From: a virus
Direction: 5' to 3' (one strand)
UHGV virus genome: UHGV-0071542
DNA length: 40,492 nucleotides
Within the stretch, counting starts at the first letter, position 1, and each line of letters begins with the position of its first letter. Positions 1,141 through 40,358 of the stretch are shown piece by piece. The position numbers and the translations under genes are program-made. The notes beneath the pieces are model-generated. The model was not told the origin of the DNA and did no database searches. It worked only from the letters and a program-made list of their open reading frames with translations.

Positions 1141-1165
1141 CCCTCTGTAGTAACAGAGGGTTTTG
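1141..1165. terminator. Bidirectional rho-independent terminator between host gene and original guaA 3' end
   Basis: Hairpin CCCTCTGT-AGTA-ACAGAGGG followed by TTTT; a diverged copy sits at 40270-40293 inside the prophage. Confidence 0.6.
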
Positions 1166-1188
1166 TTCATTCATAGTGCAGGGATCAA

Positions 1189-1205
1189 AATCATTCCCAC
1201 TCAAT
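1189..1205. repeat. attL core, 17-bp direct repeat AATCATTCCCACTCAAT
   Basis: Exact 17-mer also at 40342-40358, where it overlaps the guaA stop codon. Confidence 0.7.
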
Positions 1206-1315
1206 TATTTACGGATACCATAACCAATTGACTGATAACAACTTCCTGCAACATGATTTTCACCGTACCGTTTTATATACCGTCACCGGAAATCAGTACC
1301 ATGAAAAATGCCATG

Positions 1316-1798
1316 CTATCTCGTCAGGGTGTCATACTGTTTTTCGCAGACTCTTCCGGCTTCGGCTGCCCGGTCAGCATACTCTGCCAGTTGTCTGTTT
1401 CTCTCGAGAGATTTGCTGAGCACGTCGGCAAGCAAAACTCCGGTGTCTGCGGCTGACGTCCCAGCGCCGACAATGGCGTTATACTGCCTGAGCTGCTCAC
1501 GGATGGCAAAGAGTTGTTGCTGCAACCTGCCAGCGCGAGCGGCAGCATCAAGAGCATCATTGCGCGCCTGGTCGATTCTCTGCTGCGCTTCACGTTCATT
1601 GGTCACTTTCTCCTGTTCGTAGTACTGACGAACTTTGTCTTCTTCGTCTTTGCGGTCTTCTTCCGCCTGCGCATACCCGGCATCGTACTGGCGACTGCCG
1701 TGTATATTCCAGGCAACCACTCCGACGATGAACAGAGCAGCAAGCATCACCACGATAATCAGTTGTTTCCAATATGCTTTTACGAATGCCCAGATCAT
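1316..1798 (-). CDS. Rz-like i-spanin (inner-membrane lysis protein)
   Basis: N-terminal TM segment then charged coiled-coil; directly downstream of endolysin with overlapping start/stop. Confidence 0.7.
1324..1560 (-). CDS. Rz1-like o-spanin lipoprotein embedded in Rz in another frame
   Basis: Internal start [13 protein letters not shown] (lipobox) inside the ORF-track ORF 1324..1599; Pro-rich mature part; fully within Rz. Confidence 0.45.
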   Translation of the reverse strand: MMLLMLPLALAGCSNNSLPSVSSSGSITPLSALGRQPQTPEFCLPTCSANLSRETDNWQSMLTGQPKPEESAKNSMTP

Positions 1799-2424
1799 AT
1801 AGCCAGCACCTTACTGGCAGTGACGTACCGCGAGCGCCGGTCGTCGATGCCGTTCCGGCCACCATTGATAATCAGAGTTACACGTGCAATATCACCGGTA
1901 TACTTCATGCATCCTTTGCTGGCAAAGAACCACGCCGCGCTACGAGCCGCGTATTCGTCCTGCGCCAGCAGTTCAGGATTCTCCAGCAGGTCAACTTTCA
2001 TACCGTTTCCGCAGTCACGATAGTTATTCAAACCGGTAATCTGGATAAGCCCGCGCCCACGGTAATTCCAGCCATCGCCGGGAGCATTGTTACCCATGCG
2101 TTTGCTGTAAACCAGATTTGCGATCGCGCGCTGGCGCTCAAGTGGCAATGGTGGTTCACCAGCACGGCGCCCCAGTGCATTAGCCTGTCCCTGGGTGAGG
2201 CGTCCAGTCCTGACAAAGCTCGCCAGTCCGCTGACGCTGTAGTTGAAATTTTCCTGCAACCGGGTGAAGCCTCCAGACTCATGCCCGACCTGAGCAATAA
2301 ACATTGCCTGATCTTCTGGTTTGCTGATATCAAACTCTTTCATCGCAGAAGTTATATGCGAGAACCAGCGTGCGGCCAGCGCCTCGCTAATACCAGCAGC
2401 TCGTTGGAATTGTTTAATCTCCAT
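1795..2424 (-). CDS. Endolysin, glycoside hydrolase family 19 (chitinase-like)
   Basis: Motifs [28 protein letters not shown] typical of GH19 phage endolysins. Confidence 0.85.
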
Positions 2425-2722
2425 GTTTAGACCTCGTTATTTTGAAAATCTGAACAACGTTACCGCGAGTTTTAATAACCGCAGCTAGCATGACAGCGTT
2501 GATAATGACCTCAGATAAATCCACAGCCATTGGCGTACGTAACCAGATTGCATAGGCGACACGAACAGGAATACTGGCCGCAGCAACAATCAGGAAATAA
2601 GCAAGCCATCCTCCCCACCTTCGGTGTTGAGAGCCGTTACGCCGGAATGTGACAACGCGAATTGCTATGCCAGTGCAAATAACTGCATTGGTGATAAGCA
2701 AAAAAAACTCATGCGTTACCAT
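2414..2722 (-). CDS. Holin-like membrane protein
   Basis: About 100 aa, 2-3 predicted TM helices, immediately upstream of endolysin with overlap. Confidence 0.55.
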
Positions 2723-3122
2723 CGTCTTTTCTCCCCGGAATTAACTCGCGTGGATTATCGGAACGGTGATAAAGCCATATACCAATTCGCACAGCGACAA
2801 TTGACGACACAAATGCGCCAGCAGAGAAGACGATCCCTTTCTCGAAAGAGTCCTGCGTGATGGTAGGGATCAGGCTGGCTACACCGATAAGGATGGATGC
2901 TGTAGGTTTGTAAAAGAGAAGGCCACAGAGAAAGCTAAGCATCGACAAGAGTACGCGACGACGAATGGGATACTCTACTGCAGAGGTAACAAAAATAACC
3001 GCTCCAGCCAAAGACCCCAAAGCAACCTCAGGAGGTGCTCCTGCTATAACCGCCACCAGAGAACTCATGCTAAGCCACTGATTTAAAGACTCACTGGTTA
3101 TCTGAACTGACATAAAAACCAC
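2709..3122 (-). CDS. Holin/antiholin-like membrane protein
   Basis: Multiple hydrophobic segments; first gene of lysis cassette after a 270-bp AT-rich gap; start may be the MSVQ Met at 3110. Confidence 0.5.
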   Translation of the reverse strand: MVFMSVQITSESLNQWLSMSSLVAVIAGAPPEVALGSLAGAVIFVTSAVEYPIRRRVLLSMLSFLCGLLFYKPTASILIGVASLIPTITQDSFEKGIVFSAGAFVSSIVAVRIGIWLYHRSDNPRELIPGRKDDGNA

Positions 3123-3395
3123 CGTTTAATGTGCATATGCCCCCCTAATTTAAGGGGTTCATCATACACAATAAACCACATGTGGTTAAACAGGTAATTC
3201 ATTGTGATACTAATGTTAAACTCATTACTGCCGAAAAAGTGTCACTGATTAAAACACGGTAGAGAAATTATTAACGAGTAATTTAGGCATAATTACAATA
3301 TTTAAGTTATTAATTCACTGATTTAATCAGTAAAAGATAGCTATAACATACCACCTCCCAAGGAGGTGGTTTAGGAATAACAATAAAATATGTAC

Positions 3396-5411
3396 TTACG
3401 CACTTCGTAATAAATGTTTAGACATAGCAGCAATACAGAAACAAGATAAGTCAGCGTAATTTACACCATACATATCCGATTCTTTATCATAAGTAACCAG
3501 AGAATAGTCTGTAGGGTTAAGATTATATTTCTCCATAATCAGCATTACTTCTTGAGCCATACATCCGAAGTGATACTTATCAGATTCTGCATCTGTCCAT
3601 TTAAACTTTATCATGCTAATGGCTAATTCTAGCCCTGCACTATACTCTGCCGTAGATATCTCATACACATCTTTACATCTACCGTCAGATGTTTGTATTA
3701 CACCATTAGTTGCAAAGACAGTTTGCCATCTACGACTAGATTGACCACAAGTTCTTTGATTATCTATCTGGGGGGCAACACTACCATCTATACGCAAATA
3801 GTTATCTTCCGCTTGTGCGCCTCCCATAACACCTTCTAAAAAAGGCAATCCTTTGTGATTATTTACAATGAATTTATTGGAGGTATCTTCTGATATTCCG
3901 GTGCCAGCATCTGGACCTATAAAAATATTACCATTTCCAGTTGGTAATTTTCTTCCTGCTCTTGCTCCTATCATAACATTCAGGTCACCTGAGGATAGGG
4001 AATTGAGAGCATCAACACCAATTGCTGTATTAAAATTACCTGTGAGAGTCCCAGTGTATGGGTTCTCAGTTGATGATACTCCTCGCAATGCTCCATTACC
4101 TATAGCTGTGTTATGATCACCTTGCTTTAACTCCCTACCAGCTGCATTACCAATAAGGGTATTTCCATTACATTTATCATACCCAAGACGTACACCTTGA
4201 GGGTCTGTGTAGATGCCAGTACGCATTCCTGCAGAGCGTCCTATTGCAACATTAGCTTCTCCAGAATGGAGTTGCTGCAAAGCTGACATACCAACTGCAA
4301 CATTGAACCTACCATCCTTACACTCGTTTAGCGCATCCCTGCCAATACCAATCATGTTATTTCCAGTGGTGGCTTTCTTCAAAGCATTAATACCTATACT
4401 GATAATCTCTGTTCCAGAAAATGGCGACTTATCTGTAAGATCATCTTCTAGAGTATCTCCTGACAAACCACCCACACCAACCACGATTGTGTTAGTGCCG
4501 CTAGTTATGTTGCGACCAGAACTTGGTCCAAGCAAAACCAATTGATTACCTTTACCAGAGTCAGTGTAATTTTTTGCGGCATCATAACCTAAAATAAGGT
4601 TGCTATGAGACTGAGCTACATTGGTAAACGGAATTCGTTCCGCTCCTGTCTCTTTAATTATTTTTCCTGGGCCATAAAATCTTCCATTAATATCTTCCGG
4701 CAATAAATACGTGCCATCAGGAACATAAACACCTTGTGGCGAAGCAGATGCCGCGGCAATGAAAGCATCTGTATCATTTGTGACTCCATCACCTTTAGCG
4801 CCAAAGTCAAGAACACTGACAGTATCCCGCATCTTATCCTGAAACGTTCTATATACCGCGCCTGAACCATACTGAATAAACCAACCAAAACCACCAACAA
4901 CCCCGGCGATTGCAGCATCGACATAATTACGCATTGAGCGATTATTTACAGCGTCCTGCTCAAGTGATGGATCTGCAAGGTTAGAAATTCTGTTTTGCTT
5001 TGCATCGTAATATTTTGCAAGCAAAGATGGTTTCATCAATGCACGTCTGAACCACCCAAAACATTGCTGGATCAGCATCGTCAGGTAGTCAAAGGCATCT
5101 TCATGCACTTCGGGGAAAAACTTTCCCTGATTGCGAAGGTCTGTCTCCTGCACTACATCAAGCACACGATCTATCGTAATTCGCCATCCAGCAGCAAGCG
5201 GCGACGGAAGAACAACAGAACCGCCACTATAAGTGCCCGCCCCAGTTACCGTATAACCGGTATCCAGAACCAATTCTGTTACGTTCCCGTTCAGGTCAGA
5301 CACCTGAACAACCAGGTCGGATTTTTTGAAAATACGGAAGGTATACGGAAATGATGTCGTAACGCCGTTACCTGTGTATTCGTTGTGGTCAACTTCGGTT
5401 GAGACCGTCAT
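3396..5411 (-). CDS. Tail fibre/tailspike with C-terminal intramolecular chaperone (peptidase S74-like) domain
   Basis: N-terminal fibre anchor motif YTGNGVTTSFPYTF; Gly/Asn-rich beta-helix-like repeats; C-terminal chaperone-like segment; 3' two-thirds AT-rich. Confidence 0.75.
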   Translation of the reverse strand: MTVSTEVDHNEYTGNGVTTSFPYTFRIFKKSDLVVQVSDLNGNVTELVLDTGYTVTGAGTYSGGSVVLPSPLAAGWRITIDRVLDVVQETDLRNQGKFFPEVHEDAFDYLTMLIQQCFGWFRRALMKPSLLAKYYDAKQNRISNLADPSLEQDAVNNRSMRNYVDAAIAGVVGGFGWFIQYGSGAVYRTFQDKMRDTVSVLDFGAKGDGVTNDTDAFIAAASASPQGVYVPDGTYLLPEDINGRFYGPGKIIKETGAERIPFTNVAQSHSNLILGYDAAKNYTDSGKGNQLVLLGPSSGRNITSGTNTIVVGVGGLSGDTLEDDLTDKSPFSGTEIISIGINALKKATTGNNMIGIGRDALNECKDGRFNVAVGMSALQQLHSGEANVAIGRSAGMRTGIYTDPQGVRLGYDKCNGNTLIGNAAGRELKQGDHNTAIGNGALRGVSSTENPYTGTLTGNFNTAIGVDALNSLSSGDLNVMIGARAGRKLPTGNGNIFIGPDAGTGISEDTSNKFIVNNHKGLPFLEGVMGGAQAEDNYLRIDGSVAPQIDNQRTCGQSSRRWQTVFATNGVIQTSDGRCKDVYEISTAEYSAGLELAISMIKFKWTDAESDKYHFGCMAQEVMLIMEKYNLNPTDYSLVTYDKESDMYGVNYADLSCFCIAAMSKHLLRSA

Positions 5412-5515
5412 GTTAAATCTCCAGATAGTCGCAGCACCCGTTGCGCCGCATATCTGGTTATTCTATTACCTGAAAAACCATATATGGATAGAAAGGCTGT
5501 AAATACGAATAGATA

Positions 5516-5530
5516 TTACCTTTCAGGTAA
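5516..5530. promoter_or_regulatory. Operator-like palindrome TTACCTTTCAGGTAA
   Basis: Perfect 5-5-5 inverted repeat; identical 16-mer ATTACCTTTCAGGTAA at 22440-22455; a left-arm-only copy at 5466-5480. Confidence 0.5.
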
Positions 5531-5567
5531 TTTGCAAAACGTGCTGGATAGCAAACAAATTATTTGC

Positions 5568-5587
5568 TACTGTATAAATATACAGTT
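5568..5587 (+). promoter_or_regulatory. LexA (SOS) box TACTGTATAAATATACAGTT
   Basis: CTGT-N8-ACAG with AT-rich centre, 18/20 match to consensus TACTGTATATATATACAGTA; 20 bp upstream of the 5608 start. Confidence 0.65.
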
Positions 5588-5607
5588 ATTGCATGGAGAA
5601 GATTAAG

Positions 5608-5865
5608 ATGCAGCAGTATCACTATCCACTGGAAGACGGATTTACCGAAAGGATTCACACGCCGGGAGGCGTCAGGTCACTGGTGGAGGGATCGCACTTG
5701 ATGAAATTACTCCGGGATCTCGATAAGGATGGATTTAATGTCGATGGCCCACTTGCCGAACTGACTGCACTGATTAACTACGTCACCAGCTCACAGATGT
5801 CTATGCGGGATCTGCAAACACATCTCGACTATTGTGCCGAACAATTACGAAAACAAACCCGGTAA
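5608..5865 (+). CDS. Small SOS-regulated protein, candidate antirepressor
   Basis: ORF-track ORF 5593..5865; ATG at 5608 has RBS GGAGA; opposite strand to flanking late genes; complex hairpin plus T-run downstream. Confidence 0.5.
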   Translation: MQQYHYPLEDGFTERIHTPGGVRSLVEGSHLMKLLRDLDKDGFNVDGPLAELTALINYVTSSQMSMRDLQTHLDYCAEQLRKQTR

Positions 5866-5897
5866 ATTTAAAGGCCGCAAGAGCGGCCTGTGACATG

Positions 5898-6194
5898 TCA
5901 CGCTCTTTTTCTGAATGATAGCCATTCGAAAAATGATGACATTCCACCGCAGACAATAGCAAAGATGATCCCACCAAAGAAGAGAAGGCCAGCCTGCCAC
6001 CACTCCCACCGCCATACATCCACAGCGCCAACCATACCAACAATCGCTCCAACAAATGGAATATAGCTCACGATGAAAGCAATGGGGGCTGCAATTATCC
6101 AGTGCAATCCCCACCATGATTCAAGCCCAGCCATAATTGCTGCCAACTGAAAAAGACCAACGACGATATAAACAATGAATCCTATAGCTTGCAT
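5898..6194 (-). CDS. Small integral membrane protein (98 aa, about 3 TM)
   Basis: Highly hydrophobic, Trp-rich; lies between internal virion gene and tail fibre. Confidence 0.45.
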   Translation of the reverse strand: MQAIGFIVYIVVGLFQLAAIMAGLESWWGLHWIIAAPIAFIVSYIPFVGAIVGMVGAVDVWRWEWWQAGLLFFGGIIFAIVCGGMSSFFEWLSFRKRA

Positions 6195-6389
6195 GTAGTC
6201 ACCTATTTACCCAGTAAAAATCAGAGGCCTCCCCTCAATAAGGCTTGCAACAAGAACTATTCCCTGCACAACAAAGATGAACCAGCAAATAGCTTGAGTC
6301 TGAGGGTTAAGAAAATATTTGTAGCGGTCAATAAATAACAACCCACCAGAAATTATCACACTCAAAATAATTAAAAACACAACACTTCC

Positions 6390-8864
6390 TTATTGCGGAG
6401 TGACATCCTGAGGTCGCCACCAGTATGTCTGGTTAAACTCTTTCTTCGAACGTTGCTCCATTTTACGCAAATAGCCTGGTGAAAAATACTCCTGCATCTG
6501 GTTAAAGATCATATGATCGAGAGCCGCCTTTAAGTACCAGAGATTCGCACCTGGCATCAAACCTTTCCCCAGCTTCACCAGATCACCACCAGTCTGCTCA
6601 CTCTTCCCTTCCACAGCATTTAACGGTATGCCCTGAGCAATCTTCACTACGTCATCAACCAGACCAGCTACCGGGCCAAGCATCGACGCCAGCGCGCCGC
6701 TTCCGTACCTAGTGTGATCTGACAATAAAAAGTCACCGTAAAGGCCAAGACCACCACCTTTCAGTAGAGCACCAAGCCAAAATTTAGCAGCATCTTCTCC
6801 TGTCATCTCGCGAGGATTACGACCAGACGCAAGGTCGTTAAGTTGCTGCGACAAAGCGCCAAGAATGGTCGTACTGGCAATAAACGTCGCAATATATGCC
6901 GCACGCCCACCAGCAGACGGCATACCCATAGCGCGTGACCAGTGACGCATAACCACCGAGATAGGGAACGATTTAAACAGGAAAACACTTCTCGTTAATT
7001 CACCTTTCCATGTTCCACGCTGAATACCAGAACCGGTTATCAGTTGCTCACGTGCTCCTGGTGTAATAACAGCCATATCAACTTCTTCAGTTACGGCACC
7101 GAGCAGTTTACGCATTGCCTCAAATTTCACGCGTTCAGGCTCACCAAGATGTTTAACTGCTGAATCAGGGATACGCATAATGCTTTCCGGTGTCAGCATC
7201 GTATTATTGCCGTTCCCCCAGTCCTCCTGTTGCGCCAGCTTCCATACGCTCCAGTCTGTGTCAGTAATCCCTTTGCTTTTCAGGATACGAAAATCAGAAT
7301 CATCGAGGCTACGAAGGTCTGGTGTCCGTGACACTACTTCTCCCAGGCTTCCCATCATGGTTACGCCATAGGCGCGCTTGTGCGCATCTGACCATGCTGT
7401 AAGCCCACTGGCACGCATTACCGCCGTTGCAGCCCAACGAGATACAGACGGCCCCATATTATCCATCGCCCAGCGGTTAACGCTGCCAAGTAGAGATTCC
7501 ATCGCCAGACCAGCGCGGCGCGCCCGCGCAAGTTCTGTACGGTTCGTTGGGTCCATAGCTTCAAGCTGGTTGCGGAATAACTGGTTCATTGGAAGGTTGG
7601 TAACCTTCGCAGACAGATACATGGTTCCAAGATCAGAGAACGATGACAGCAACGCGGATCCGAGTCTGCTGGCAACCAGCCAGTTGCGGATATTGTCAGA
7701 CCATCGCGCGATGTGCGGATTCGCTACAGGCTGTGTCTTTCCGGAAATAAAGTTGTACAGATTCTCTGTGTTGTTCGCCAGCCGCTCGACTTTACCGGTT
7801 TTACTCGGGTTAGCTGTTGCCGTTTCTGCCTTCACCTGATCAAGAAGAGAGCGGAAAACATGATCGGGGTTTGGGCCATATGTTTCCACCAGTGCAATAT
7901 CTTTACTGATACCTTCAAGGTGACCGACCATGATTTCCCATAGAGAGCGATCGCCATAAAGTTGCTGATATTGCAGATAGGAATCTGCATCTTTGAAATG
8001 TATCTGTCGTGATGCATTACCACGGTTAGCACGTGCGCCGGAAATTCGCATTCCGGTATCAGTAAGCTTATTCAGCCCACCAGTAGCGATCGTGTTATAA
8101 GCCTCTCCAAGAAATGCAGACAACTCGGCATCGTTCATCAGTTGTCCATCGGCTCGGGTATAATATTTGCGATCCAGCTTACCTATAACATCGCTAACCC
8201 ATTTATCTTTTGATACCGCCCCAACCTTTTCCATAGAATGATGTTGAGGGATCCCCCAGTTTTCGAGATAGCCAATGTCCCCACCAGCATCATTAAACCG
8301 GCGGCGCAGCAGCTCTGTAACTTCTCTCCACGCCTTAGCACCTTTTCTTGCTTTAGCATTGCCAGTATTTTGCCCCCGCATTTCATATACCAGGTCACGT
8401 ACGCCCGCTTCATCTTCAAACAGACCAAAAAAGCGAGGATCAACTGCTTCGAATGCCTCCTGCAATTGACTCAATGCATAATCACGGGTGGCTTTTGTTC
8501 TGGATTCAACAGAGAGGAAATTCGATTTACCGTCTGCATTAAAAGCAATAGTACGGTTAAGAGCGCCAAGTTTCCCATCAGCCCCTTGATAGCTATTGAT
8601 AAATTTATCCAATCTCTGACGTGCGGCTATAGTGAGGGCCACACGACGTTTCTTTAATGCCGCTTCTCGCTGTAATTCTTCAGATGCCAATTGTGCTGCA
8701 CGATACAACCGTTCTGATTCGGAAAGTTGTCGCCACGACATCGGGTCATCACGAGCAATGGAGCGCATATTTCGATAAATGCGGTCTTCAATGTTCTGTA
8801 TTTCTCGCGCCGTTAACGTGCGCTGCGCCGCCTGCTGGACCGCTTGTATACATTCCTGTCTCAT
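6390..8864 (-). CDS. Internal virion/ejection protein (824 aa)
   Basis: Large protein in the block of large genes between tail-tube and tail-fibre genes, as in T7-like and epsilon15-like virions. Confidence 0.6.
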   Translation of the reverse strand: MRQECIQAVQQAAQRTLTAREIQNIEDRIYRNMRSIARDDPMSWRQLSESERLYRAAQLASEELQREAALKKRRVALTIAARQRLDKFINSYQGADGKLGALNRTIAFNADGKSNFLSVESRTKATRDYALSQLQEAFEAVDPRFFGLFEDEAGVRDLVYEMRGQNTGNAKARKGAKAWREVTELLRRRFNDAGGDIGYLENWGIPQHHSMEKVGAVSKDKWVSDVIGKLDRKYYTRADGQLMNDAELSAFLGEAYNTIATGGLNKLTDTGMRISGARANRGNASRQIHFKDADSYLQYQQLYGDRSLWEIMVGHLEGISKDIALVETYGPNPDHVFRSLLDQVKAETATANPSKTGKVERLANNTENLYNFISGKTQPVANPHIARWSDNIRNWLVASRLGSALLSSFSDLGTMYLSAKVTNLPMNQLFRNQLEAMDPTNRTELARARRAGLAMESLLGSVNRWAMDNMGPSVSRWAATAVMRASGLTAWSDAHKRAYGVTMMGSLGEVVSRTPDLRSLDDSDFRILKSKGITDTDWSVWKLAQQEDWGNGNNTMLTPESIMRIPDSAVKHLGEPERVKFEAMRKLLGAVTEEVDMAVITPGAREQLITGSGIQRGTWKGELTRSVFLFKSFPISVVMRHWSRAMGMPSAGGRAAYIATFIASTTILGALSQQLNDLASGRNPREMTGEDAAKFWLGALLKGGGLGLYGDFLLSDHTRYGSGALASMLGPVAGLVDDVVKIAQGIPLNAVEGKSEQTGGDLVKLGKGLMPGANLWYLKAALDHMIFNQMQEYFSPGYLRKMEQRSKKEFNQTYWWRPQDVTPQ

Positions 8865-22777: not shown

Positions 22778-22854
22778 GTGGCATTAGCTCAGTTGGACAG
22801 AGCAACCGCCTTCTAAGCGGTTGGTCGCAGGTTCGAATCCTGCATGCCACGCCA
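22778..22854 (+). tRNA. tRNA-Arg (anticodon UCU), phage-encoded
   Basis: 77 nt; 7-bp acceptor stem GTGGCAT/ATGCCAC; D-arm GCTC..GAGC; anticodon loop CTTCTAA; T-arm GCAGG-TTCGAAT-CCTGC; 3' GCCA. Confidence 0.85.
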
Positions 22855-26606: not shown

Positions 26607-27495
26607 TATTCACCTTTATCGCGTAAACCTTTATCGGTTTATCACCGAAGTGGGGGTGTGTGATTGTTTTCACTTCATATCCTCCATACGGAACATCAAT
26701 TCTGCGACTGGAGTCGTCGCGCTTCGGATATCCCTTTGTGATAATCAGGCGGTCATACTCGCGTAACATAATTCGCTTATTCCAGTAGTCATTACACAAG
26801 CGATACTCTTCCGTTTTCTCTCCGCGAATCATGGCATCGAAGTATTCACCTTTGACGGCAAGTTGCAGGTTAGCCACGGTTAACCTCCTGCGGCGTTCTG
26901 GTAGTGGCATCCAGTGTGTGACATTGCTAATCAGACCATATTCATTAGTTTGAGGATGGTTGCCGTTATCGTCTCCGTATTTAAGACTCTCCATAAAGCC
27001 ATAATGCCTATCACCATTAACGCTCACAAAGCCGTAATAAGCAGGTATAACGCCGATCTCACACGTAACCAGTAAAGGAAAACTAGTTCTCCAATTTAGC
27101 TCGCCAATTACAGGCATTCGCTCACTACAGCTTATCCAACCATCCGGAGTTACCGGAGAGTTGCCAGCGGCCTCGGGCATATCCGGACCTTTGCGAATAG
27201 CCTTTGCAAGCTCAACAGGGTCATCGTAAAGCCAGTCGCCAGTTTGTGGGTGATTTGCTTCTGCAAGCTGCGCAGCCCATTCAAGACCATCTTTTTGACC
27301 TTGGAGATAATCAAGCGGCAACTCTTCATGATTACTTGCAGGTTCGGCACTATCAGCTTCGCGCCGCTTCTGTAGCTCTGCTGCCATTGCTCTCACGACT
27401 TCAACTGGTGCCCTTGCAGCAAACTCTATGTTGGTGATCAGCTCATTAAGATATTGCTCGCCTGGATACTGTTTCTTATCGGTTATAGTGGTCAT
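26596..27495 (-). CDS. Ead/Ea22-like protein with DUF551-like and ASCH-like regions (299 aa)
   Basis: N-terminus MTTIT shared with 28265..28777; central motif resembling DUF551; C-terminal beta-barrel-like region. Confidence 0.45.
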   Translation of the reverse strand: MTTITDKKQYPGEQYLNELITNIEFAARAPVEVVRAMAAELQKRREADSAEPASNHEELPLDYLQGQKDGLEWAAQLAEANHPQTGDWLYDDPVELAKAIRKGPDMPEAAGNSPVTPDGWISCSERMPVIGELNWRTSFPLLVTCEIGVIPAYYGFVSVNGDRHYGFMESLKYGDDNGNHPQTNEYGLISNVTHWMPLPERRRRLTVANLQLAVKGEYFDAMIRGEKTEEYRLCNDYWNKRIMLREYDRLIITKGYPKRDDSSRRIDVPYGGYEVKTITHPHFGDKPIKVYAIKVNIDG

Positions 27496-27505
27496 GTGTT
27501 ACTCC

Positions 27506-27769
27506 TTAACCCGCAGTGCTTTCAACTGATGAGGGGAACAAAATCTTTTCATCAAACCCTGCATTCATATCATGAACAGCAACACACCAATCCATCGACG
27601 AACGATTATCAAGAGCCTCCATGATTTCATCCATGCGGCGCAGGTCATACAGGTAAATGCTTTTATCGCCAATGGTGTAAAAACCAATTTTTTTCGGTGA
27701 TGGACAGCGATCAAGAACGTCCTGTAATTCGCTCAACCATGCTTGTTCTTTTTTTGTCAAAGTTGCCAT
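27506..27769 (-). CDS. Hypothetical protein (87 aa)
   Basis: ORF with RBS; conserved junction element upstream. Confidence 0.4.
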   Translation of the reverse strand: MATLTKKEQAWLSELQDVLDRCPSPKKIGFYTIGDKSIYLYDLRRMDEIMEALDNRSSMDWCVAVHDMNAGFDEKILFPSSVESTAG

Positions 27770-27770
27770 A

Positions 27771-28262
27771 TCACTCTCCTTTGATGCGAATGCCAGTGGT
27801 ACTCATTCTCCTGATTTCCCAGAGCACACGAGGAACACCACCGTTTCCGACCGGATCGCGTTTACTCCGCAGGGCGACGCTTGATTCCGCCCAGCTTTTT
27901 CTTGGAGGAAGCTCTTTCACACGAACAAAACCAGCTGCGCGGAGAGATGCTCCTGATTCATCTGCCTGGGTGTACGTAATACAACGTTGATAACCCATAG
28001 CCTTTGCTGCCCGCCAGACAGCACCATAAAGTGCGCTGTTAGCGTTGCGTTCTCCTGTGGTACATGTGCGATTTACTTCAAGCGTTAATCCATCGTCCAA
28101 ATGTCGTGCAACAGGTCGACCAGCTGTCGCCACACCTATCAATTCTCCGGCATCATTTATCAGACCAATGCTGAATTTATGCCCCACCGGGGGTTTATTG
28201 TGTCGGTGATGTCTTGATATAAACGCCTTCGCAACACGAAGAGTAACCGGTGAAATTTGCAC
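27771..28262 (-). CDS. Hypothetical protein, possible GNAT-like fold (163 aa)
   Basis: GTG start 2 nt after upstream stop within junction AAAGGAGAGTGAGAGTG; C-terminal segment resembles GNAT core; weak. Confidence 0.4.
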   Translation of the reverse strand: MQISPVTLRVAKAFISRHHRHNKPPVGHKFSIGLINDAGELIGVATAGRPVARHLDDGLTLEVNRTCTTGERNANSALYGAVWRAAKAMGYQRCITYTQADESGASLRAAGFVRVKELPPRKSWAESSVALRSKRDPVGNGGVPRVLWEIRRMSTTGIRIKGE

Positions 28263-28264
28263 TC

Positions 28265-28777
28265 TCACTCTCCTTTGATGCCAATGTTTACAGCCTGGCA
28301 AGCCTCTTTGAGCACCCAGTCAACAGCGTCTTTCCATGCTCCGGTTTCGACTGGTGGATTTTCACGCTTAACCTGTTCATAGAAGCGCACTGCTTTAATC
28401 AATCCTTCTGGTGTCAGTGGCACAGGCGGGGCAGTGAATAACGCCTGAATTTCATAGTTCGGTCTGTCGTTGCAATCCTCTTTTGTCGGTACATATTTCC
28501 AGTCACCAACCCACGGCTCCCCCTGTGAGTCCGTAATGCTTTTTTTCACGTAGCGATATCGCCATGCCATCGGTTCTGCTTCCAGCGATGCCAGCACAAT
28601 TCGTGCCAGCTCACGCACAACTTCCGGCGGCGCGTAACGGTCATTCAGGTCATCCCACAGGCGTAGCATGTTATCGCTACCAGGGTGAACATCCTCGTTA
28701 GTTCCGGCAAGCGCACTAATAACCTCATCGGCTGCCTCAATAATTTTCAGAGCTTGTTCTCTGGTAATAGTGGTCAT
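28265..28777 (-). CDS. Ead/Ea22-like hypothetical protein (170 aa)
   Basis: N-terminus MTTITREQ; ends ...IGIKGE encoded by the junction element. Confidence 0.45.
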   Translation of the reverse strand: MTTITREQALKIIEAADEVISALAGTNEDVHPGSDNMLRLWDDLNDRYAPPEVVRELARIVLASLEAEPMAWRYRYVKKSITDSQGEPWVGDWKYVPTKEDCNDRPNYEIQALFTAPPVPLTPEGLIKAVRFYEQVKRENPPVETGAWKDAVDWVLKEACQAVNIGIKGE

Positions 28778-28983
28778 TTGTTAATCCTCAAAACTTTATG
28801 CCCGGGCGCAAAAGCACGCGTTTTGTCTTTGCTTATTCGCCAGCCATCCTTGCGCGCCTCTTTTGCACAGCCAGCCCATGACGTACCGATATACTCACCG
28901 AAGTCTGGCACTGGATATACACCTTCCGTACACTGGCGGCAGTCACAATAGAGATGCATTGTGTAACTTGCGGCAATAGCCAT
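28774..28983 (-). CDS. Small Cys-rich protein (about 70 aa)
   Basis: ATG after AAGGAGAG RBS; motif HLYCDCRQC. Confidence 0.4.
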   Translation of the reverse strand: MAIAASYTMHLYCDCRQCTEGVYPVPDFGEYIGTSWAGCAKEARKDGWRISKDKTRAFAPGHKVLRINK

Positions 28984-28984
28984 A

Positions 28985-29173
28985 TCACTCTCCTTTAGTG
29001 CGCAAGTGGTTTTTCCAGCGGTTTTGCGCCGCGCTGGGCTTTTTGCAAAAACCACAATCCATCATCCCGTAATATTTCATCAACCCCATCCGTCGGTTGC
29101 TGAGTCTCACCCACTGCCAGACGCCAGGAGCGTTTCTACGAACTAACAGAATCTTTGCTTTACGGTTTTTCAT
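28985..29173 (-). CDS. Small basic protein (62 aa)
   Basis: RBS GGAGAG; ends ...TKGE at junction element. Confidence 0.35.
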   Translation of the reverse strand: MKNRKAKILLVRRNAPGVWQWVRLSNRRMGLMKYYGMMDCGFCKKPSAAQNRWKNHLRTKGE

Positions 29174-31013: not shown

Positions 31014-31814
31014 TTACTTGATAAATCCTGCCGCCTTTCCCCGCCTGTATTCCTCCATCAGCCACTGCGCCGGTGTTATTCCCCCAAGGGTGGCGGCGTT
31101 AGGCATGCACCCGAAACTTCGCCCTGGTGGATGGTAAACGTCTCTCCCTGTGTCCGGAGGCGTACTCATGGGTTCTGGCTTTGCCTGTATGCTGATCACC
31201 GGATCGGGTATCTGCTGTCCGGAAGCCACCTTTTTCGCCCAATCATCGAGCAGCCTGCGCGCGTGTTTCTCAACCTCTATCTCGCTAAGCTGGCGCTGAT
31301 ACATTGCACGGCGGGTATCACATACGACCCAGTACATAACCGGATGCCGCCACGGGAATCTTTCGGGACCACCAGGATATAAACTTTTTTCCTTGCTGTA
31401 CCGGTGAAACTCCGTCATCACATCGTCAATGGTGACGCCAAGAACCATCTTGCTGTCTTTGCACCACTTGATGAATTGCCCTGGCGACGGCCAGAACGGA
31501 GAATCACTGGCGCGGGCGTGGCGCATACCAGCAGAAACCTGTTCACGGGTTCGGATCCCCCCTTCGGCAAACGCAGCAATCCACTGCTGTTTTGCAGCAA
31601 CTTCCTGCTCTGGCGTCTTCAGGTTGGTTACCACTGCCGCCGGAAACAGTTGTTTCAACTGTTTGAAAAGGGCATCAACAAGCCTCTCTGCTGACATGTT
31701 CACTACGTTGTCATTGTTGACGTACTGATGCTCATAACCTGACATGCGAGAAAGGGCTTCTCCGTCACGGTTTTGTATTGCGGTAAAAACGTTGTTCACA
31801 AGAAATCCTCCCAT
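31014..31814 (-). CDS. Replication protein P-like helicase loader
   Basis: GMRHARASDSPFWPSPGQFIKWC aligns with lambda P GMRVARRQNRPFLPSPGQFVAWC; follows the initiator gene. Confidence 0.75.
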   Translation of the reverse strand: MGGFLVNNVFTAIQNRDGEALSRMSGYEHQYVNNDNVVNMSAERLVDALFKQLKQLFPAAVVTNLKTPEQEVAAKQQWIAAFAEGGIRTREQVSAGMRHARASDSPFWPSPGQFIKWCKDSKMVLGVTIDDVMTEFHRYSKEKSLYPGGPERFPWRHPVMYWVVCDTRRAMYQRQLSEIEVEKHARRLLDDWAKKVASGQQIPDPVISIQAKPEPMSTPPDTGRDVYHPPGRSFGCMPNAATLGGITPAQWLMEEYRRGKAAGFIK

Positions 31815-32611
31815 GCTTCAGGGCTGTTCCAGTGCGGAACGTTGTTATCAGGTAATGTTGATTGCTTCTGTCTGCTAATCTGCAGCCGCCTTGCCAGCTT
31901 CTGCTCCCACTGCGCCTGATGGTATGCCTTACCCTCAGCCATCCAGTAAATTCTGAACTCTGCAAGTTCCTGTGCCGTTGGCAGACTGTCCAGGTAGATC
32001 CCCTGCAATGAGCTTTTCCGAAGAAAGTCATCTGATGGTTGCCATTGTTCATGCATGACAAATTTGCCTAATTGCCCTGGCCCACCAGGAGGAACAAAGT
32101 TATTCATCACGGCGTTGTTTGCGCCGGGGTCATGAGGCACAGAATCCCCGCTTTTTGTCCTGCTCTCCCTCTCTTGGTTAAATGACTGGTTATATGACTG
32201 GTTCTGGATCCCGTTTTTGGGATCATTCAACATCCCGTTTTTGGGATCATTCAACATCCCGTTTTTGTGTATATTCCCGTTTTCGGTAACATTACCGTTT
32301 TCGGGTTCATTACCCCCTTCCCGGTTGCCTTTAATGTTCCCGTTTTTGGTTATATTAAGAGAGAAAACCCGCACTCTTTTCGTCGCTCCCTTTCTCTCTC
32401 CGGTATCTGAAATAAGCCCCATTTTCATGAGCGATATAAGCCCGGCCTGCACGGTTTTTTTATTCAGGCAAGTGTCTTTAACGAGGCGTTCTATGCTGGG
32501 GTAGCAGAGGTTATATTCATCGGCTCTGTCAGCCATCGAGAGCAGTATGAGCTTTAATGACGAGCTACCTGGATCTGTCTCCCAGGCCCAATCTGTTGCA
32601 TGTCTGCTCAT
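31796..32611 (-). CDS. Replication initiator (HTH N-terminus, Asn/Gly-rich middle encoded by iterons, DnaT-like C-terminus)
   Basis: Iteron array lies inside the coding region as in lambda O; precedes P-like gene. Confidence 0.6.
   Translation of the reverse strand: MSRHATDWAWETDPGSSSLKLILLSMADRADEYNLCYPSIERLVKDTCLNKKTVQAGLISLMKMGLISDTGERKGATKRVRVFSLNITKNGNIKGNREGGNEPENGNVTENGNIHKNGMLNDPKNGMLNDPKNGIQNQSYNQSFNQERESRTKSGDSVPHDPGANNAVMNNFVPPGGPGQLGKFVMHEQWQPSDDFLRKSSLQGIYLDSLPTAQELAEFRIYWMAEGKAYHQAQWEQKLARRLQISRQKQSTLPDNNVPHWNSPEAWEDFL
32209..32356. repeat. Origin iterons: about 6 copies of TCCCGTTTT(T)NGG, including two exact 24-mers TCCCGTTTTTGGGATCATTCAACA
   Basis: Exact 24-mers at 32209-32232 and 32233-32256, degenerate copies to about 32356; ATGACTGGTT x2 at 32181-32203. 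Confidence 0.7.
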
Positions 32612-34250: not shown

Positions 34251-34258
34251 GTTAGCAA

Positions 34259-35293: not shown

Positions 35294-35300
35294 GGTGGGT

Positions 35301-37356: not shown

Positions 37357-37405
37357 CCACCACCGCGGCGCCACGCGCGCCGCACTGCAACCAAGAGAGG
37401 TATTT

Positions 37406-37654: not shown

Positions 37655-37763
37655 GTGTGCTGCTAAGGCACTGGAGCAAATGGTCAGGATGGTACTTATT
37701 CCTGGCCTCTGTTTCTGCATGGCTTTATCTGCTGGCATTAATTTTCAGAGAGGGTTGGATTAA

Positions 37764-38063
37764 GTGAGAAAGTTAAGCCGACTTGAAAAATATCACATGA
37801 ACAAGGTTTCAATGCGCAGCCCTTCAAAGGTTGTTGCCGTTACTCCTGCGGCGATAGAGATCGAAAAACGCGCGATTGAAAGAGAGAAAAAAGGGCAGTT
37901 CCGCATTGCCGCCCACCTTTGGCTTCAGTGTATGGATGTTGCTTCTGGTGATGTTGAGCGTGCAAGGATCGCGGTTCGCAGGGACCAATGTATCACAAAA
38001 GGTAACGGCCTTCGCCGTGGCGACTATAGCGGTATAGGATGTTGCGGGGTGGTTTATGACTAA
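37764..38063 (+). CDS. Hypothetical small regulator-like protein
   Basis: Basic, helical, about 90-100 aa; start may be MNKVS. Confidence 0.35.
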   Translation: MRKLSRLEKYHMNKVSMRSPSKVVAVTPAAIEIEKRAIEREKKGQFRIAAHLWLQCMDVASGDVERARIAVRRDQCITKGNGLRRGDYSGIGCCGVVYD

Positions 38064-38706
38064 GAAATACACACTAATCTATGCAGATCCACCCTGGGTA
38101 TACCGGGACAAAGCCGCAGATGGTAATCGCGGTGCCGGTTTTAAATATCCGGTTATGAGTGTGATGGATATCTGCCGCCTTCCTGTGTGGGATTTGGCCG
38201 ATGAAAACTGTCTGTTGGCCATGTGGTGGGTGCCAACACAACCACTCGAAGCACTAAAAGTTGTTGAAGCCTGGGGATTCCGTCTGATGACCATGAAGGG
38301 ATTCACGTGGATAAAATGTGGTAGTCGACAACCAGATAAACTGGTTATGGGTATGGGTCACATGACTCGCGCCAATAGTGAAGATTGCCTGTTTGCAGTA
38401 AAGGGAAAACTACCTCCGCGCATTAATGCAGGGATCGTTCAGTCATTTACCGCACCGCGGCTTGAGCATTCAAGAAAACCAGATGTCGTTCGTGAAAAAC
38501 TTGTGCAATTGTTAGGCGATGTTTCTCGCATTGAACTGTTCGCCCGCCAGTCGTCTCATGGCTTCGATGTTTGGGGTAATCAGTGCGAAGACCCGGCAGT
38601 GCAACTACACCCTGGATACGCGTTGGATATTGCCAGATTAACAAATGCATTCAGCAATGCTCCGCTGTCACCAACAGACAACCAGGGGCGGGAGCGTGCA
38701 GCATGA
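38056..38706 (+). CDS. Orphan DNA N6-adenine methyltransferase (MT-A70-like)
   Basis: N-terminal catalytic motif DPPW; no restriction partner seen. Confidence 0.75.
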   Translation: MTKKYTLIYADPPWVYRDKAADGNRGAGFKYPVMSVMDICRLPVWDLADENCLLAMWWVPTQPLEALKVVEAWGFRLMTMKGFTWIKCGSRQPDKLVMGMGHMTRANSEDCLFAVKGKLPPRINAGIVQSFTAPRLEHSRKPDVVREKLVQLLGDVSRIELFARQSSHGFDVWGNQCEDPAVQLHPGYALDIARLTNAFSNAPLSPTDNQGRERAA

Positions 38707-38897
38707 ACCGGGCATCACCAGCAGATTTAAGGAAATGCCTTGAAACTGCAAACATGCTTGCACACAGCGGGATCAGGTTTGTTCCAATTCCCGCTGTCAC
38801 CGATGCTGAATTTGCAACGCTGTCAGCAATATTCGCAGACAAAATTGAATCACTGGCAGCAGAAGCCGAGATGGAAGAAAATCAGCAGAATAATTAA
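38703..38897 (+). CDS. Small hypothetical protein (64 aa) coupled to methyltransferase
   Basis: ATGA stop/start overlap with MTase; in-frame internal start of ORF-track ORF 38583..38897. Confidence 0.4.
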   Translation: MNRASPADLRKCLETANMLAHSGIRFVPIPAVTDAEFATLSAIFADKIESLAAEAEMEENQQNN

Positions 38898-38900
38898 ACG

Positions 38901-40151
38901 TTATTCCCCCGCCATCCACTTCTCAAACTTCGACGGGGAGAACGGAATCAGATCCGTATGCTCCCCGTCAATCCAAGAATCAATCATATCGGCCCACTGC
39001 TGCAACATGTAGGCGCGCTGTCTGGCGTATTCCGCTTTGTTATATACGGCGCGCACACCTTTCTGCTCATGTGCCAGAGCCTTTTCAATCCAGTCTGAAG
39101 GATAACCAGCCTCATGCAACAACGTACTGGCTGTACGGCGCATATCGTGTACGGTGAAGTCCTGAATATGCTCACCATCTTCATTTATTATTTTCACCGT
39201 TCTGTCGATCAGAGAGTTCAGTGCGGCATTAGATAATGGCTTCCGGAAATTGTAACGACCAGGAACCAGGTATTCACTTCCACCAGCGCACATCTGCAAC
39301 CCGACCAATATATCCTGTGCCTGTTTAGGCAGGTAAATAACGTGCGCCCGGCTTCCTTTCATGCGGTCTGAAGGAATTGTCCATGTCCATTTTTTAAAAT
39401 CTATTTCATCCCACGTTGCATTGGTGAATTCGCCCTTACGAACCATAGTGATAAGCACCAGTTTTAAAGCCATTTTCATAGTGCCCATAGCACCAATGGC
39501 ATCCAGCGTGCGGAAGAACAGGCCAATTTCTTCTGGTGTCAGTGTTCGCTCTCGTGGTTTAAATATGGCGATAGACGAAGGTTTAATGTCAGCCGCAGGA
39601 TTAAACAAACCATGACCACGGTCATTGGCGTGACGGTATACGCTACTGATGATCTCCCTGGCCTGCACTGCTGTTGCCCGGCCACCGCGTTCGACAATCC
39701 GGTCACACAAATCACGAACCATCGATGTGGTAATTTCAGCCATCATTTTATTGCCAAGAACCGGAAGTATGTCACGGTCGATCACCGCCTGTTTCATTGC
39801 GCGGGTACTGTCAGCCAGGATGACGTGTTTCATATAACTGTCGGTATGTACCGCAAACGTCTCGGCACCACGAATCTTTTTGATACCGTCACGTTTAGCC
39901 GCAGCCGGTGACTGGCCTGCTTTAAGCAGCTTCTTTGCAGCAATCAGTTCTTCTCGCGCTTCTGCCAGGCTGATACCGTCACGCCCATACTGCCCGATTA
40001 CCAGCGTTTCGCGGCGACCGTTGATACGGTAGTCGTAGCGAAACGAGACCGTGCCTGACGTAAGCACAGCTACATACAGCCCGTCACGATCGGAGACCTT
40101 GTACAGTTTGTCCTGCGGCTTGAGGTTTTTTAATTTTGTATCGGTAAGCAC
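38901..40151 (-). CDS. Tyrosine integrase (P4-like family)
   Basis: N-terminal arm-binding-like domain and C-terminal catalytic region ending HDMRRTASTLLHEAGY; adjacent to attR. Confidence 0.85.
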   Translation of the reverse strand: MLTDTKLKNLKPQDKLYKVSDRDGLYVAVLTSGTVSFRYDYRINGRRETLVIGQYGRDGISLAEAREELIAAKKLLKAGQSPAAAKRDGIKKIRGAETFAVHTDSYMKHVILADSTRAMKQAVIDRDILPVLGNKMMAEITTSMVRDLCDRIVERGGRATAVQAREIISSVYRHANDRGHGLFNPAADIKPSSIAIFKPRERTLTPEEIGLFFRTLDAIGAMGTMKMALKLVLITMVRKGEFTNATWDEIDFKKWTWTIPSDRMKGSRAHVIYLPKQAQDILVGLQMCAGGSEYLVPGRYNFRKPLSNAALNSLIDRTVKIINEDGEHIQDFTVHDMRRTASTLLHEAGYPSDWIEKALAHEQKGVRAVYNKAEYARQRAYMLQQWADMIDSWIDGEHTDLIPFSPSKFEKWMAGE

Positions 40152-40193
40152 AATTCACCCGTATAGAAACCATTTTCATGACGGTATGAGAGT

Positions 40194-40208
40194 ATACCTT
40201 TAAGGTAA
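40194..40208. promoter_or_regulatory. Operator-like site ATACCTTTAAGGTAA upstream of integrase
   Basis: About 40 bp upstream of int start on the sense strand. Confidence 0.4.
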
Positions 40209-40269
40209 TACCGTCACCTGTACCGCCGAAAAATATGGTGTAGAGTGAATAGAAATGAATACATAAAAA

Positions 40270-40293
40270 CAAAAACCCTCTGTAAAAACAGAG
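40270..40293. terminator. Phage-borne copy of the guaA-region terminator hairpin
   Basis: CCCTCTGT-AAAA-ACAGAGGG + TTT, near-identical to host hairpin at 1141-1165. Confidence 0.55.
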
Positions 40294-40341
40294 GGTTTAG
40301 TTAGTATCTGAATAGGAATGACTTGCTATGAGTTAGCTGTT

Positions 40342-40358
40342 AATCATTCCCACTCAAT
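40342..40358. repeat. attR core, 17-bp direct repeat AATCATTCCCACTCAAT
   Basis: Identical to 1189-1205; contains guaA stop codon (TCA on + strand at 40344-40346). Confidence 0.7.

Follow-up and report, generated by a model that had tools for sequence, protein, structure and literature searches.

What becomes of a gene's 3′ end, and of the terminator behind it, when a prophage is inserted at its stop codon? The question is raised by the virus genome UHGV-0071542, a stretch of 40,492 nucleotides that was analysed here as a whole (the window) and in which a prophage separates guaA from its convergent neighbour yfgI. A preliminary description of this DNA had proposed that a 17-bp direct repeat brackets the element, that the right copy contains the guaA stop codon and that the phage supplies a surrogate 3′ end and terminator for guaA. 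The features that define the two junctions are:

23–541, plus strand: yfgH, host gene for a glycine-zipper lipoprotein (open reading frame; Pfam glycine-zipper families; RefSeq annotation of the empty site)
557–1096, plus strand: yfgI (DUF5384), host gene convergent with guaA (open reading frame; Pfam DUF5384, 8e-62; RefSeq annotation)
1189–1205, no strand assigned: int-distal copy of the 17-bp core, joining the host flank to the phage P′ arm (exact match and four-way alignment)
1206–40341, no strand assigned: prophage body, Uetakevirus (phiV10/epsilon15-like), 39,136 bp between the cores (nucleotide identity and PHROG matches)
40342–40358, no strand assigned: int-proximal copy of the 17-bp core, holding the final four codons of guaA (IEWE) plus its stop (exact match and four-way alignment)
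40344–40492, minus strand: 3′ end of guaA (GMP synthase), incomplete at the window end (translation; RefSeq annotation of matching genomes)

The repeat was borne out: the 17-mer AATCATTCCCACTCAAT occurred in exactly two copies, at 1189–1205 and 40342–40358, with no third copy in the window at up to 2 mismatches, and two core matches were seen in none of 100 shuffled sequences. Identity between the copies ended at exactly 17 bp, the left neighbours being A and T and the right neighbours T and G. Joining the left and right outer flanks through one core recreated the yfgI–guaA junction, which 4463 of 5426 complete E. coli genomes have in contiguous form; the empty site rebuilt in this way had a best identity of 99.4% to these genomes, in which it is annotated as yfgI and guaA. 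The inner flanks joined at one core gave the attP of phiV10, where the core lies at 26720–26736 of the record, between Rz and int, and attB, attL, attR and attP were mutually consistent in a four-way alignment. Contiguous sequence spanned the int-proximal junction in 568 genomes and the int-distal one in 352, and this prophage family occupies the guaA site in about 6–10% of complete E. coli genomes. The same 17-mer has been published as attP/attB of phiV10, epsilon15 and vB_EcoP_ZX5; for ZX5, which is near-identical, induction and junction PCR have been performed, and attB, attL and attR were verified by PCR and Sanger sequencing (PMC9782041).

The core consists of the last 12 coding nucleotides of guaA, the stop codon and 2 nt. 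Its right copy does hold the guaA stop, the TGA being the complement of 40344–40346, and the C-terminus read from the minus strand (40344–40490), which ends in KPPATIEWE and the stop, is the same in the lysogen as in the empty-site strain, leaving reading frame and protein unaltered. Judged from the sequence, the 3′ end that the phage brings to E. coli guaA is only 12 coding nucleotides and the stop, the same as the host's. That such phages carry a surrogate 3′ end is supported by a Klebsiella lysogen of a related phage (MK422448), in which the last guaA codon and stop changed synonymously from GAG TAA to GAA TGA.

The gene content and the putative attachment-site elements of the prophage are:

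1316–2722, minus strand: lysis cassette, reading toward the left junction (Pfam and phiV10 annotation), made up of the three genes that follow
1316–1798, minus strand: Rz-like gene (DUF2514)
1795–2424, minus strand: endolysin
2414–2722, minus strand: holin
38901–40151, minus strand: tyrosine integrase (int) of 416 aa, starting 190 nt from the core and directed away from guaA (Pfam)
1277–1286, plus strand: ATACCGTCAC, probable integrase site of the arm type, within the P′ arm (motif enrichment; position equal to an epsilon15 protein_bind 'integrase' feature)
39630–40217, plus strand at 39883, 39973 and 40208, minus strand at 39630 and 40178 (1 mismatch): putative P-arm cluster of ATACCGTCAC sites (motif enrichment)

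The integrase carries the Pfam domains Arm-DNA-bind_3 (4e-20), Phage_int_M and Phage_integrase (1e-19). Three of the five P-arm ATACCGTCAC sites fall within the int coding sequence, and the integrase protein_bind features of the epsilon15 record correspond to those at 39883, 39973 and 40208. Nucleotide identity of the prophage to phiv142-3, PAS61, ZX5 and phiV10 was 93–98%, with 76–100% coverage at 95–98% identity for the first three, and the int region was 98% identical to that of phiV10 and ZX5. PHROG matches included a tailspike, a terminase, O-like and P-like replication proteins and a repressor; both the size (39.1 kb) and the gene content (lysis cassette, tailspike, terminase, O/P-like replication genes, repressor and methylase) fit a Uetakevirus. 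Compared with phiV10, the prophage diverges mainly in the tailspike and accessory region, where only 61% of 1206–8000 is covered by phiV10 and 76% by phiv142-3, and shows no differences at the attachment site. By these matches the element is a complete epsilon15/phiV10-type podovirus prophage of an ordinary, already described kind. A defective or remnant prophage was ruled out by the full length, the perfect cores and the 95–98% identity to plaque-forming phages.

Each junction bears a hairpin on the strand of guaA:

1137–1164, minus strand: predicted terminator hairpin native to guaA, AAAACCCTCTGT-TACT-ACAGAGGGTTTT with a U-run behind it (terminator scan and fold; identical in the empty site)
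40273–40298, minus strand: phage-borne hairpin, AAACCCTCTGT-TTTT-ACAGAGGGTTT followed by UUGUUUUUAU at 40263–40272 (scan, fold and phiV10/epsilon15 annotation)

The claim that a diverged copy of the host hairpin lies inside the prophage stood, since 1136–1167 and 40271–40302 are equal at 29 of 32 positions and have the same stem, CCCTCTG/CAGAGGG (host, 1141–1147/1154–1160; phage, 40276–40282/40289–40295), but its right-hand coordinates did not: the interval 40270–40293 begins 6 nt ahead of the core stem and omits the final 2 nt of the 3′ arm, and is corrected here to 40273–40298. In the empty site the native hairpin begins 27 nt past the guaA stop, and in the lysogen it is found downstream of the prophage lysis operon; because it is also 3′ of yfgI on the plus strand, it may act bidirectionally. 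The phage hairpin begins 46 nt past the guaA stop. Hairpins are 39135 nt apart and cores 39153 nt, the phage hairpin being 18 nt farther from its core.

On the minus strand the host hairpin folded at −20.1 kcal/mol (z −5.5) and the phage hairpin at −19.1 kcal/mol (z about −5), and none of 200 shuffles was as stable. Terminator-like calls on this strand ran from 1164 to 1137 with the tail TTATCTTCAA and from 40298 to 40273 with the tail TTGTTTTTAT, and both hairpins have the sequence features of intrinsic terminators, with 12 pairs and then UUUUUU in the host and 11 pairs and then UUUUUGUUUUU in the phage. The GenBank records of phiV10 and epsilon15 annotate the phage hairpin as a rho-independent terminator; that of epsilon15 places IHF and integrase sites as well as the terminator in the corresponding positions, and annotates RNase III sites in the attP/hairpin region. 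An Rfam search of both junctions returned no known RNA family. The terminator-like folding, the guaA-sense U-tract and the phage annotation support the proposal that the phage carries a terminator for guaA.

The signal also has a direction. The U-run of the phage hairpin is conserved only on the guaA/lysis-sense strand, the opposite-strand tail varying between phages, and one-sided stem substitutions of all four kinds (ACAGGGGG, CGGAGGG, GCAGAGGG and the native ATAGAGGG) give G·U in guaA-sense RNA and C·A on the opposite strand; for four substitution types this amounts to roughly p = 0.06 (1/16, by our own reckoning and assuming that the four are independent). Within Uetakevirus, stem changes were one-sided only. 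The CCCTCTG-type hairpin is common to phages of E. coli, Salmonella, Klebsiella and Enterobacter, and the Uetakevirus stem equals that of the native terminator behind guaA in E. coli and in K. pneumoniae, the only second native site obtained. A scan of genome contigs with the core 17-mer for the native Salmonella guaA terminator returned no Salmonella, and every IMG/VR attL flank bearing the CCCTCTG hairpin came from E. coli, with 97–99% identity to the window flank.

We propose that the phage hairpin very probably replaces the guaA terminator, which the insertion displaced by 39 kb, and we hold it to be likely, with good confidence, that the two hairpins were swapped reciprocally by Campbell-type integration at the core and that guaA transcripts stop at the phage hairpin. 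A P4-like tyrosine integrase would carry out site-specific recombination at the 17-bp core common to attP and the guaA end. Both partners present the same layout on the same strand, the end of an upstream gene followed by the core and a predicted terminator hairpin (guaA, core and hairpin at +27 in the chromosome; holin–endolysin–Rz, core, hairpin at +46 and int in the phage), so that recombination would exchange the hairpins. In the lysogen, guaA transcripts would stop at the phage hairpin, 46 nt past the stop codon and short of int, and the prophage lysis operon would end at the old guaA/yfgI hairpin; the phage hairpin would serve both as a replacement terminator for guaA and as an insulator for int. 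We infer from these sequence features that both hairpins act as terminators in vivo, and that retention of the phage one is owed partly to protection of the guaBA 3′ end and to keeping guaBA read-through out of int. Because in the free phage it follows the lysis cassette and precedes int on the same strand, service to guaA need not be its sole or original role. ZX5 lysogeny had no measurable phenotype (PMC9782041), which fits a good replacement terminator and equally fits an indifference of guaA.

The same site is used by other elements. Integrases of the epsilon15 cluster are reported to target the guaA 3′ flank, and guaA-associated genomic islands and integrative and conjugative elements (ICEs), for example CMGI-3, carry integrases of this cluster (IntSXT subgroup) (PMC8138268); on guaA-associated islands, PMC4482086 cites Song et al. 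2012. In arms of the TGCCAGAC type with an adjacent integrase homologue, a terminator-like hairpin stood at +45 to +48 nt past the stop in 9 of 11 non-independent sequences, with at least five different complementary stems; such a hairpin at this position occurred in only 0.12% of random 100-nt windows. Between lineages the stems differ in both arms at the same position, a pattern for which a covariance test would be circular because the hairpins were preselected by hairpin search, and MAFFT with RNAalifold on 14 hairpins from different elements gave a meaningless consensus of 4 pairs with the arms out of register owing to differing loop lengths. Of 19 further integrase-linked arms at this core, alpha-proteobacterial ones among them, none had a canonical hairpin, and a replacement terminator is thus no universal requirement of integration at guaA.

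A broader reading, which we put forward tentatively and at somewhat less than even confidence, is that the terminator hairpin is an old P-arm module in the TGCCAGAC-type branch, fixed 45–48 nt past the guaA stop, with stems changed compensatorily between lineages; as the Uetakevirus stem is the native Escherichia/Klebsiella stem, sequence would have passed between attP and the guaA 3′ UTR. If so, either a host terminator was captured by the phage or an ancient attR survives as the native terminator of enterobacteria, and selection to end guaBA transcription before int would shape attP in this integrase cluster. A search of E. coli genomes for a scar of prophage loss by hairpin–hairpin recombination (host flank, hairpin, phage spacer, core and guaA) revealed none, the best matches being ordinary empty sites at 93% identity.

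Several other explanations of the hairpin bear on these readings. It could be purely a phage device that ends the late lysis operon and shields int in the replicating phage, with guaA termination an unselected by-product of attP position. In keeping with this, phiV10, epsilon15, Tyrion, BUCT711, SPN1S, PAT1 and BUCT554 all have the hairpin between Rz and int, in the same strand orientation, and its CCCTCTG type tracks phage lineage across E. coli, Salmonella, Klebsiella and Enterobacter hosts. However, guaA elements of the genomic-island type, in which a lysis operon is probably missing upstream of attP, have a hairpin at +45 to +48 all the same, and the identity of the Uetakevirus stem with the native E. 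coli/K. pneumoniae guaA stem points to a link with guaA. We regard the purely phage role as rather unlikely, and it is compatible with a replacement of the guaA terminator.

That the hairpin acts as DNA within attP, as a binding or bending site for IHF, Xis or integrase or as a cruciform, its likeness to the host reflecting common protein-binding needs, we consider improbable. The IHF site of the epsilon15 record overlaps the stem-loop (581–603 and 565–594, respectively, in locus L123), and across elements the hairpin keeps a constant 45–48 nt from the core, as for an intasome component, but stems wholly different between element lineages with pairing kept would favour a structure over a sequence-specific protein site. 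Moreover, the one-sided changes yield G·U on one strand only, the strand on which the conserved U-run follows; the native attB hairpin is 19 nt nearer the core, and an attB of the lambda type is not expected to need arm sites. Convergence or chance, by which two unrelated GC-rich terminators came to the same 7-bp stem with no homology, might account for hairpin–core spacers that are only about 50% alike and differ by 18–19 nt in length, and hairpins of terminators, with A-runs and T-runs on either side, belong to a constrained class of sequence. This, too, we think very doubtful: the copies share 29 of 32 positions, with no difference in the 7-bp stem, and agree in orientation and in the side of the core on which they lie; a chance match over such a stem has a probability of order 1e-4, and the stem is native to K. 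pneumoniae guaA while other guaA elements use other stems.

The guaA site, the core, the phage family and the terminator annotation are all previously known, and beyond correct annotation the locus has little importance. A literature search for a surrogate terminator at attP returned nothing relevant. The locus is a clean worked example of how guaA, a gene of an essential pathway (GMP synthesis), stays intact under phage integration; mildly new are the fixed-distance hairpin in many unrelated guaA-targeting elements and the stem common to a phage and a native enterobacterial terminator. Comparing hairpins across elements yields a testable idea on the form of the attP arm.

The closest relatives of the site are the attP/attB of phiV10, epsilon15 and vB_EcoP_ZX5, whose 17-bp core, attgagtgggaatgatt, is identical and was found at both prophage ends; as in the prophage, the core is 190 nt from the int start, with the hairpin and ATACCGTCAC arm sites equally placed. 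The guaA islands and ICEs share with the prophage the target, the exact core 17-mer, integrase homologues (44–67% identity) that start about 290–370 nt from the core and read away from guaA and, in arms of the TGCCAGAC type, a hairpin at +45 to +48. They differ in stems such as GCCCGCG, CCCATTG and GCCCGTG among others, in a cargo that is not that of a podovirus and in GTCTGGCA-type repeats instead of the Uetakevirus spacer; alpha-proteobacterial arms at guaA, unlike those of Uetakevirus, are without a hairpin. As at lambda sib, an RNA hairpin beside attP changes its transcriptional context upon integration, but sib is situated 3′ of int, on the far side of attP, and lowers the stability of int mRNA, whereas the prophage hairpin lies 5′ of int. 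Retroregulation of the sib type was ruled out by this geometry, int (40151 to 38901) reading away from the core. Reconstitution of a gene 3′ end is known for phage 21 and e14 in icd and for P4-, P22- and L5-type elements in tRNA genes, and reportedly was treated for integrating elements by Campbell in 1992 and 2003 and by Williams in 2002. Like these icd- and tRNA-type elements, the prophage has an attP that copies the gene 3′ end and leaves the gene intact, with the displaced host copy at the far junction; it differs from many tRNA sites in that a very short identity of 17 bp, followed by a diverged spacer and by a hairpin conserved separately, takes the place of a long continuous duplicate.

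The prophage is bracketed by two exact copies of a 17-bp core, AATCATTCCCACTCAAT (1189–1205, int-distal, and 40342–40358, int-proximal), and no third copy was found in the window even when two mismatches were allowed; two copies occurred in none of 100 shuffled sequences. The bases flanking the two copies are unlike on both sides, and the identity is therefore exactly 17 bp. The right copy belongs to guaA, whose stop codon is the complement of 40344–40346 and whose frame terminates in ...KPPATIEWE, as it does in a prophage-free strain. This confirms the preliminary description, which had reported a 17-bp direct repeat around the element with the guaA stop codon in its right copy. The host genes at the ends, which were assigned from their ORFs, from Pfam and from how RefSeq annotates matching genomes, and the two hairpins are as follows:

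23–541, + strand: yfgH, host gene
557–1096, + strand: yfgI, host gene
1137–1164: host hairpin, core stem CCCTCTG/CAGAGGG at 1141–1147/1154–1160
40273–40298: phage hairpin, same stem CCCTCTG/CAGAGGG at 40276–40282/40289–40295
40344–40492, − strand: last 49 codons of guaA, at the window end

The hairpin copy that had been noticed inside the prophage as a diverged version of the host hairpin is real, matching it at 29 of 32 positions (1136–1167 versus 40271–40302); the interval first proposed for it, 40270–40293, needs a small coordinate correction of a few bases. Folding of the guaA-sense (minus) strand gave −20.1 kcal/mol for the host hairpin and −19.1 kcal/mol for the phage hairpin, approximately 5 standard deviations below shuffles. 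UUUUUU follows the former and UUUUUGUUUUU the latter, and a terminator scan of this strand picked up both. They start 27 nt (host) and 46 nt (phage) past the guaA stop. Three observations support the prediction that the hairpin acts as RNA on this strand. The U-run is conserved on the guaA-sense strand only, the opposite-strand tail differing between phages. The one-sided stem changes found in relatives all give G·U pairs in the guaA-sense RNA and C·A on the other strand: epsilon15 and Klebsiella prophages have ACAGGGGG, Tyrion has CGGAGGG, IMG/VR contigs have GCAGAGGG and one native site has ATAGAGGG. Last, the phiV10 and epsilon15 records annotate a rho-independent terminator at this hairpin. 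In the first 100 nt past the core, one attL flank (L242, an IMG/VR contig) opens with TTTGACCCTGCACTATGAATGAA, as in the native spacer of E. coli, before turning to a different hairpin, CCTCCGGC-ATA-GCCGGAGG, and an unrelated flank; the region downstream of guaA is here a variant or rearranged one.

The preliminary description had proposed a comparison with an uninterrupted guaA–yfgI junction. An artificial empty site of 342 nt was assembled by placing a single core between the left and right flanks. This rebuilt site was contiguous in 4,463 of 5,426 complete E. coli genomes, with identity up to 99.4%, and in the matching genomes yfgI is annotated adjoining guaA. Conversely, fusing the inner flanks across a single core recovers the genome sequence of phage phiV10, in which the core lies at record positions 26720–26736 between the Rz-like gene and int. 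Aligned four ways, attB, attP and the left and right junctions show a clean Campbell exchange. The int-proximal junction was contiguous in 568 complete E. coli genomes and the int-distal junction in only 352, and the element is therefore common. Approximately 395 complete genomes had neither the empty site nor the window's int-proximal junction; the guaA end in E. coli is therefore occupied by other elements or diverged arms as well.

The free phage carries, on one strand (phiV10), holin, endolysin, Rz, core, hairpin and int, and the chromosome carries guaA, core and hairpin on the same strand. Because both have the core followed by a hairpin in the same orientation, recombination within the core would exchange the host and phage hairpins. 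In the lysogen, guaA transcripts would then reach the phage hairpin ahead of int, and the prophage lysis operon (2722→1316, minus strand) would run into the old guaA/yfgI hairpin. The replacement terminator postulated in the preliminary description is thus most likely one half of a reciprocal exchange.

In E. coli the guaA end is unchanged by the insertion because the phage and host cores are identical. In MK422448, from Klebsiella pneumoniae lysogenic for a related phage, ATTGAGTGGGAGTAATC (Glu GAG, stop TAA) stands in the displaced host copy and ATTGAGTGGGAATGATT (GAA, TGA) in the copy now joined to guaA; therefore, the phage does supply the last guaA codon and stop. From these sequences, strand exchange must occur inside ATTGAGTGGGA (TCCCACTCAAT on the window's + strand), that is, in the portion of the core that is coding. 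This record also contains the native guaA terminator of Klebsiella, AAACCCTCTGTGTTTACAGAGGGTTTTTTT, which lies approximately 25 nt past the stop and has the same stem as those of E. coli and the phage.

Exact matches to the 17-mer, scanned in one genome per species, gave at least 120 loci; those listed span Gammaproteobacteria, Betaproteobacteria, Alphaproteobacteria, Clostridia, archaeal MAGs and other groups, and in at least 106 guaA lies on the right-hand side of the core. Among the matches listed, at least about 36 loci carry a homologue of the prophage integrase (44–67% identity over most of its length), starting 290–370 nt from the core and reading away from guaA. The downstream arms of the listed loci (L003–L122) sort into a few recurrent types: GTCTGGCA (TGCCAGAC) repeats with a hairpin, alpha-proteobacterial CGATAG repeats without one, and Clostridia GTTGCCA repeats with a long hairpin approximately 95–100 nt out. 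This grouping suggests that many of these loci with the exact 17-mer contain an integrated element or what remains of one. Of the listed integrase-linked TGCCAGAC-type arms, 9 of 11 have a terminator-like hairpin 45–48 nt past the stop, the same position as in the window's prophage, with stems that differ yet are fully complementary (GCCCGCG/TGCGGGC, CCCATTG/CAATGGG, GCCCGTG/CACGGGC and GCCCATG/CATGGGC). Among random 100-nt windows taken from these loci, 0.12% have such a hairpin at such a position, a figure that is no probability, since the TGCCAGAC-type arms are related to one another; none of the 19 alpha-proteobacterial and other integrase-linked arms listed has one. Within one large branch of the elements that target guaA, the hairpin thus seems to be an old, fixed component of the P arm (the int-side attP flank). 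Element-type arms by guaA, with the GCCCGCG hairpin or TGCCAGAC repeats and no integrase homologue detected in the examined flank, were seen at L003 (Raoultella terrigena, 3830–3947), L027, L030, L040, L051 and L057, mostly Pseudomonas, with L030 labelled Gordonia; these may be relic junctions now acting as the resident guaA 3′ region.

The Uetakevirus hairpin shares its stem with the native enterobacterial guaA terminator: the phage may have acquired the stem from its host, or the host may have retained it after an ancient prophage. Among E. coli genomes, no deletion scar between the two hairpins was found.

Around attP, ATACCGTCAC occurs in five exact copies and one with a single mismatch within about 700 bp, compared with 1.4 near-matches expected in the whole window; three copies lie within the int coding sequence:

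1277–1286: ATACCGTCAC copy
39630–39639, − strand: ATACCGTCAC copy
39883–39892: ATACCGTCAC copy
39973–39982: ATACCGTCAC copy
40178–40187, − strand: ATACCGTCAC copy
40208–40217: ATACCGTCAC copy

The epsilon15 record already marks a terminator stem-loop, IHF sites, RNase III sites and four 10-bp integrase sites, and these four protein_bind sites map exactly to the copies at 39883, 39973, 40208 and 1277. The inverted copies (39630 and 40178) match none of the four in the examined stretch of that record.

The phage DNA between the host flanks amounts to 39.1 kb. Its int-to-core region is 98% identical to phiV10, vB_EcoP_ZX5, TL-2011b and phiv142-3, and its structural and replication region matches PAS61, O157 typing phages 9 and 10, phiv142-3 and ZX5 at 97–98% identity over 77–84% of the length. 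It encodes an integrase with Arm-DNA-bind_3, Phage_int_M and Phage_integrase domains, holin, endolysin, an Rz-like protein, tailspike, large terminase, an O-like initiator, a P-like loader, repressor and methylase. Judged by these matches, the element is a full-length Uetakevirus prophage. It also carries a tRNA-Arg with anticodon TCT (22778–22854, + strand; Rfam score 73 bits); the structural and packaging genes around it lie on the opposite, minus strand. The O-like replication initiator gene (31796–32611, minus strand), which adjoins the P-like helicase loader gene, contains at least six tandem 18–24-bp iterons, ATCCCGTTTTTGGGATCATTC and variants (32208–32357), which resemble a lambda-style origin inside the initiator gene. 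Repeated 29–37-nt blocks (for example, ..CATATCACTCTCCTTTGATGC..) at 27756–27792, 28250–28286 and 28970–29006, and also at 27481–27509 and 28763–28791, occur where successive small ORFs of the minus strand begin and look like reused ribosome-binding/start regions of an early gene cluster.

The 17-bp core has been published as attP of phiV10 and epsilon15 (PMC9782041), and for vB_EcoP_ZX5, in which it lies at the guaA 3′ end 190 bp from int, attB, attL and attR were verified by PCR and Sanger sequencing (PMC9782041). TL-2011b was reported inserted in guaA (PMC3293862), the guaA 3′ flank has been described as the target of epsilon15-cluster integrases and CMGI-3 (PMC8138268), and guaA-associated islands have been surveyed (Song et al. 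2012, as cited in PMC4482086). At the sequence level, our data support the preliminary interpretation that the phage carries a surrogate guaA 3′ end and terminator, which is already known; the positionally conserved hairpin across guaA-targeting elements is a modest, testable addition to this picture. Rebuilding of the target gene's 3′ end by an integrating element is textbook behaviour (Campbell; Williams). A mechanism like that of lambda sib does not fit since, in contrast to lambda sib, the prophage hairpin lies upstream of int.
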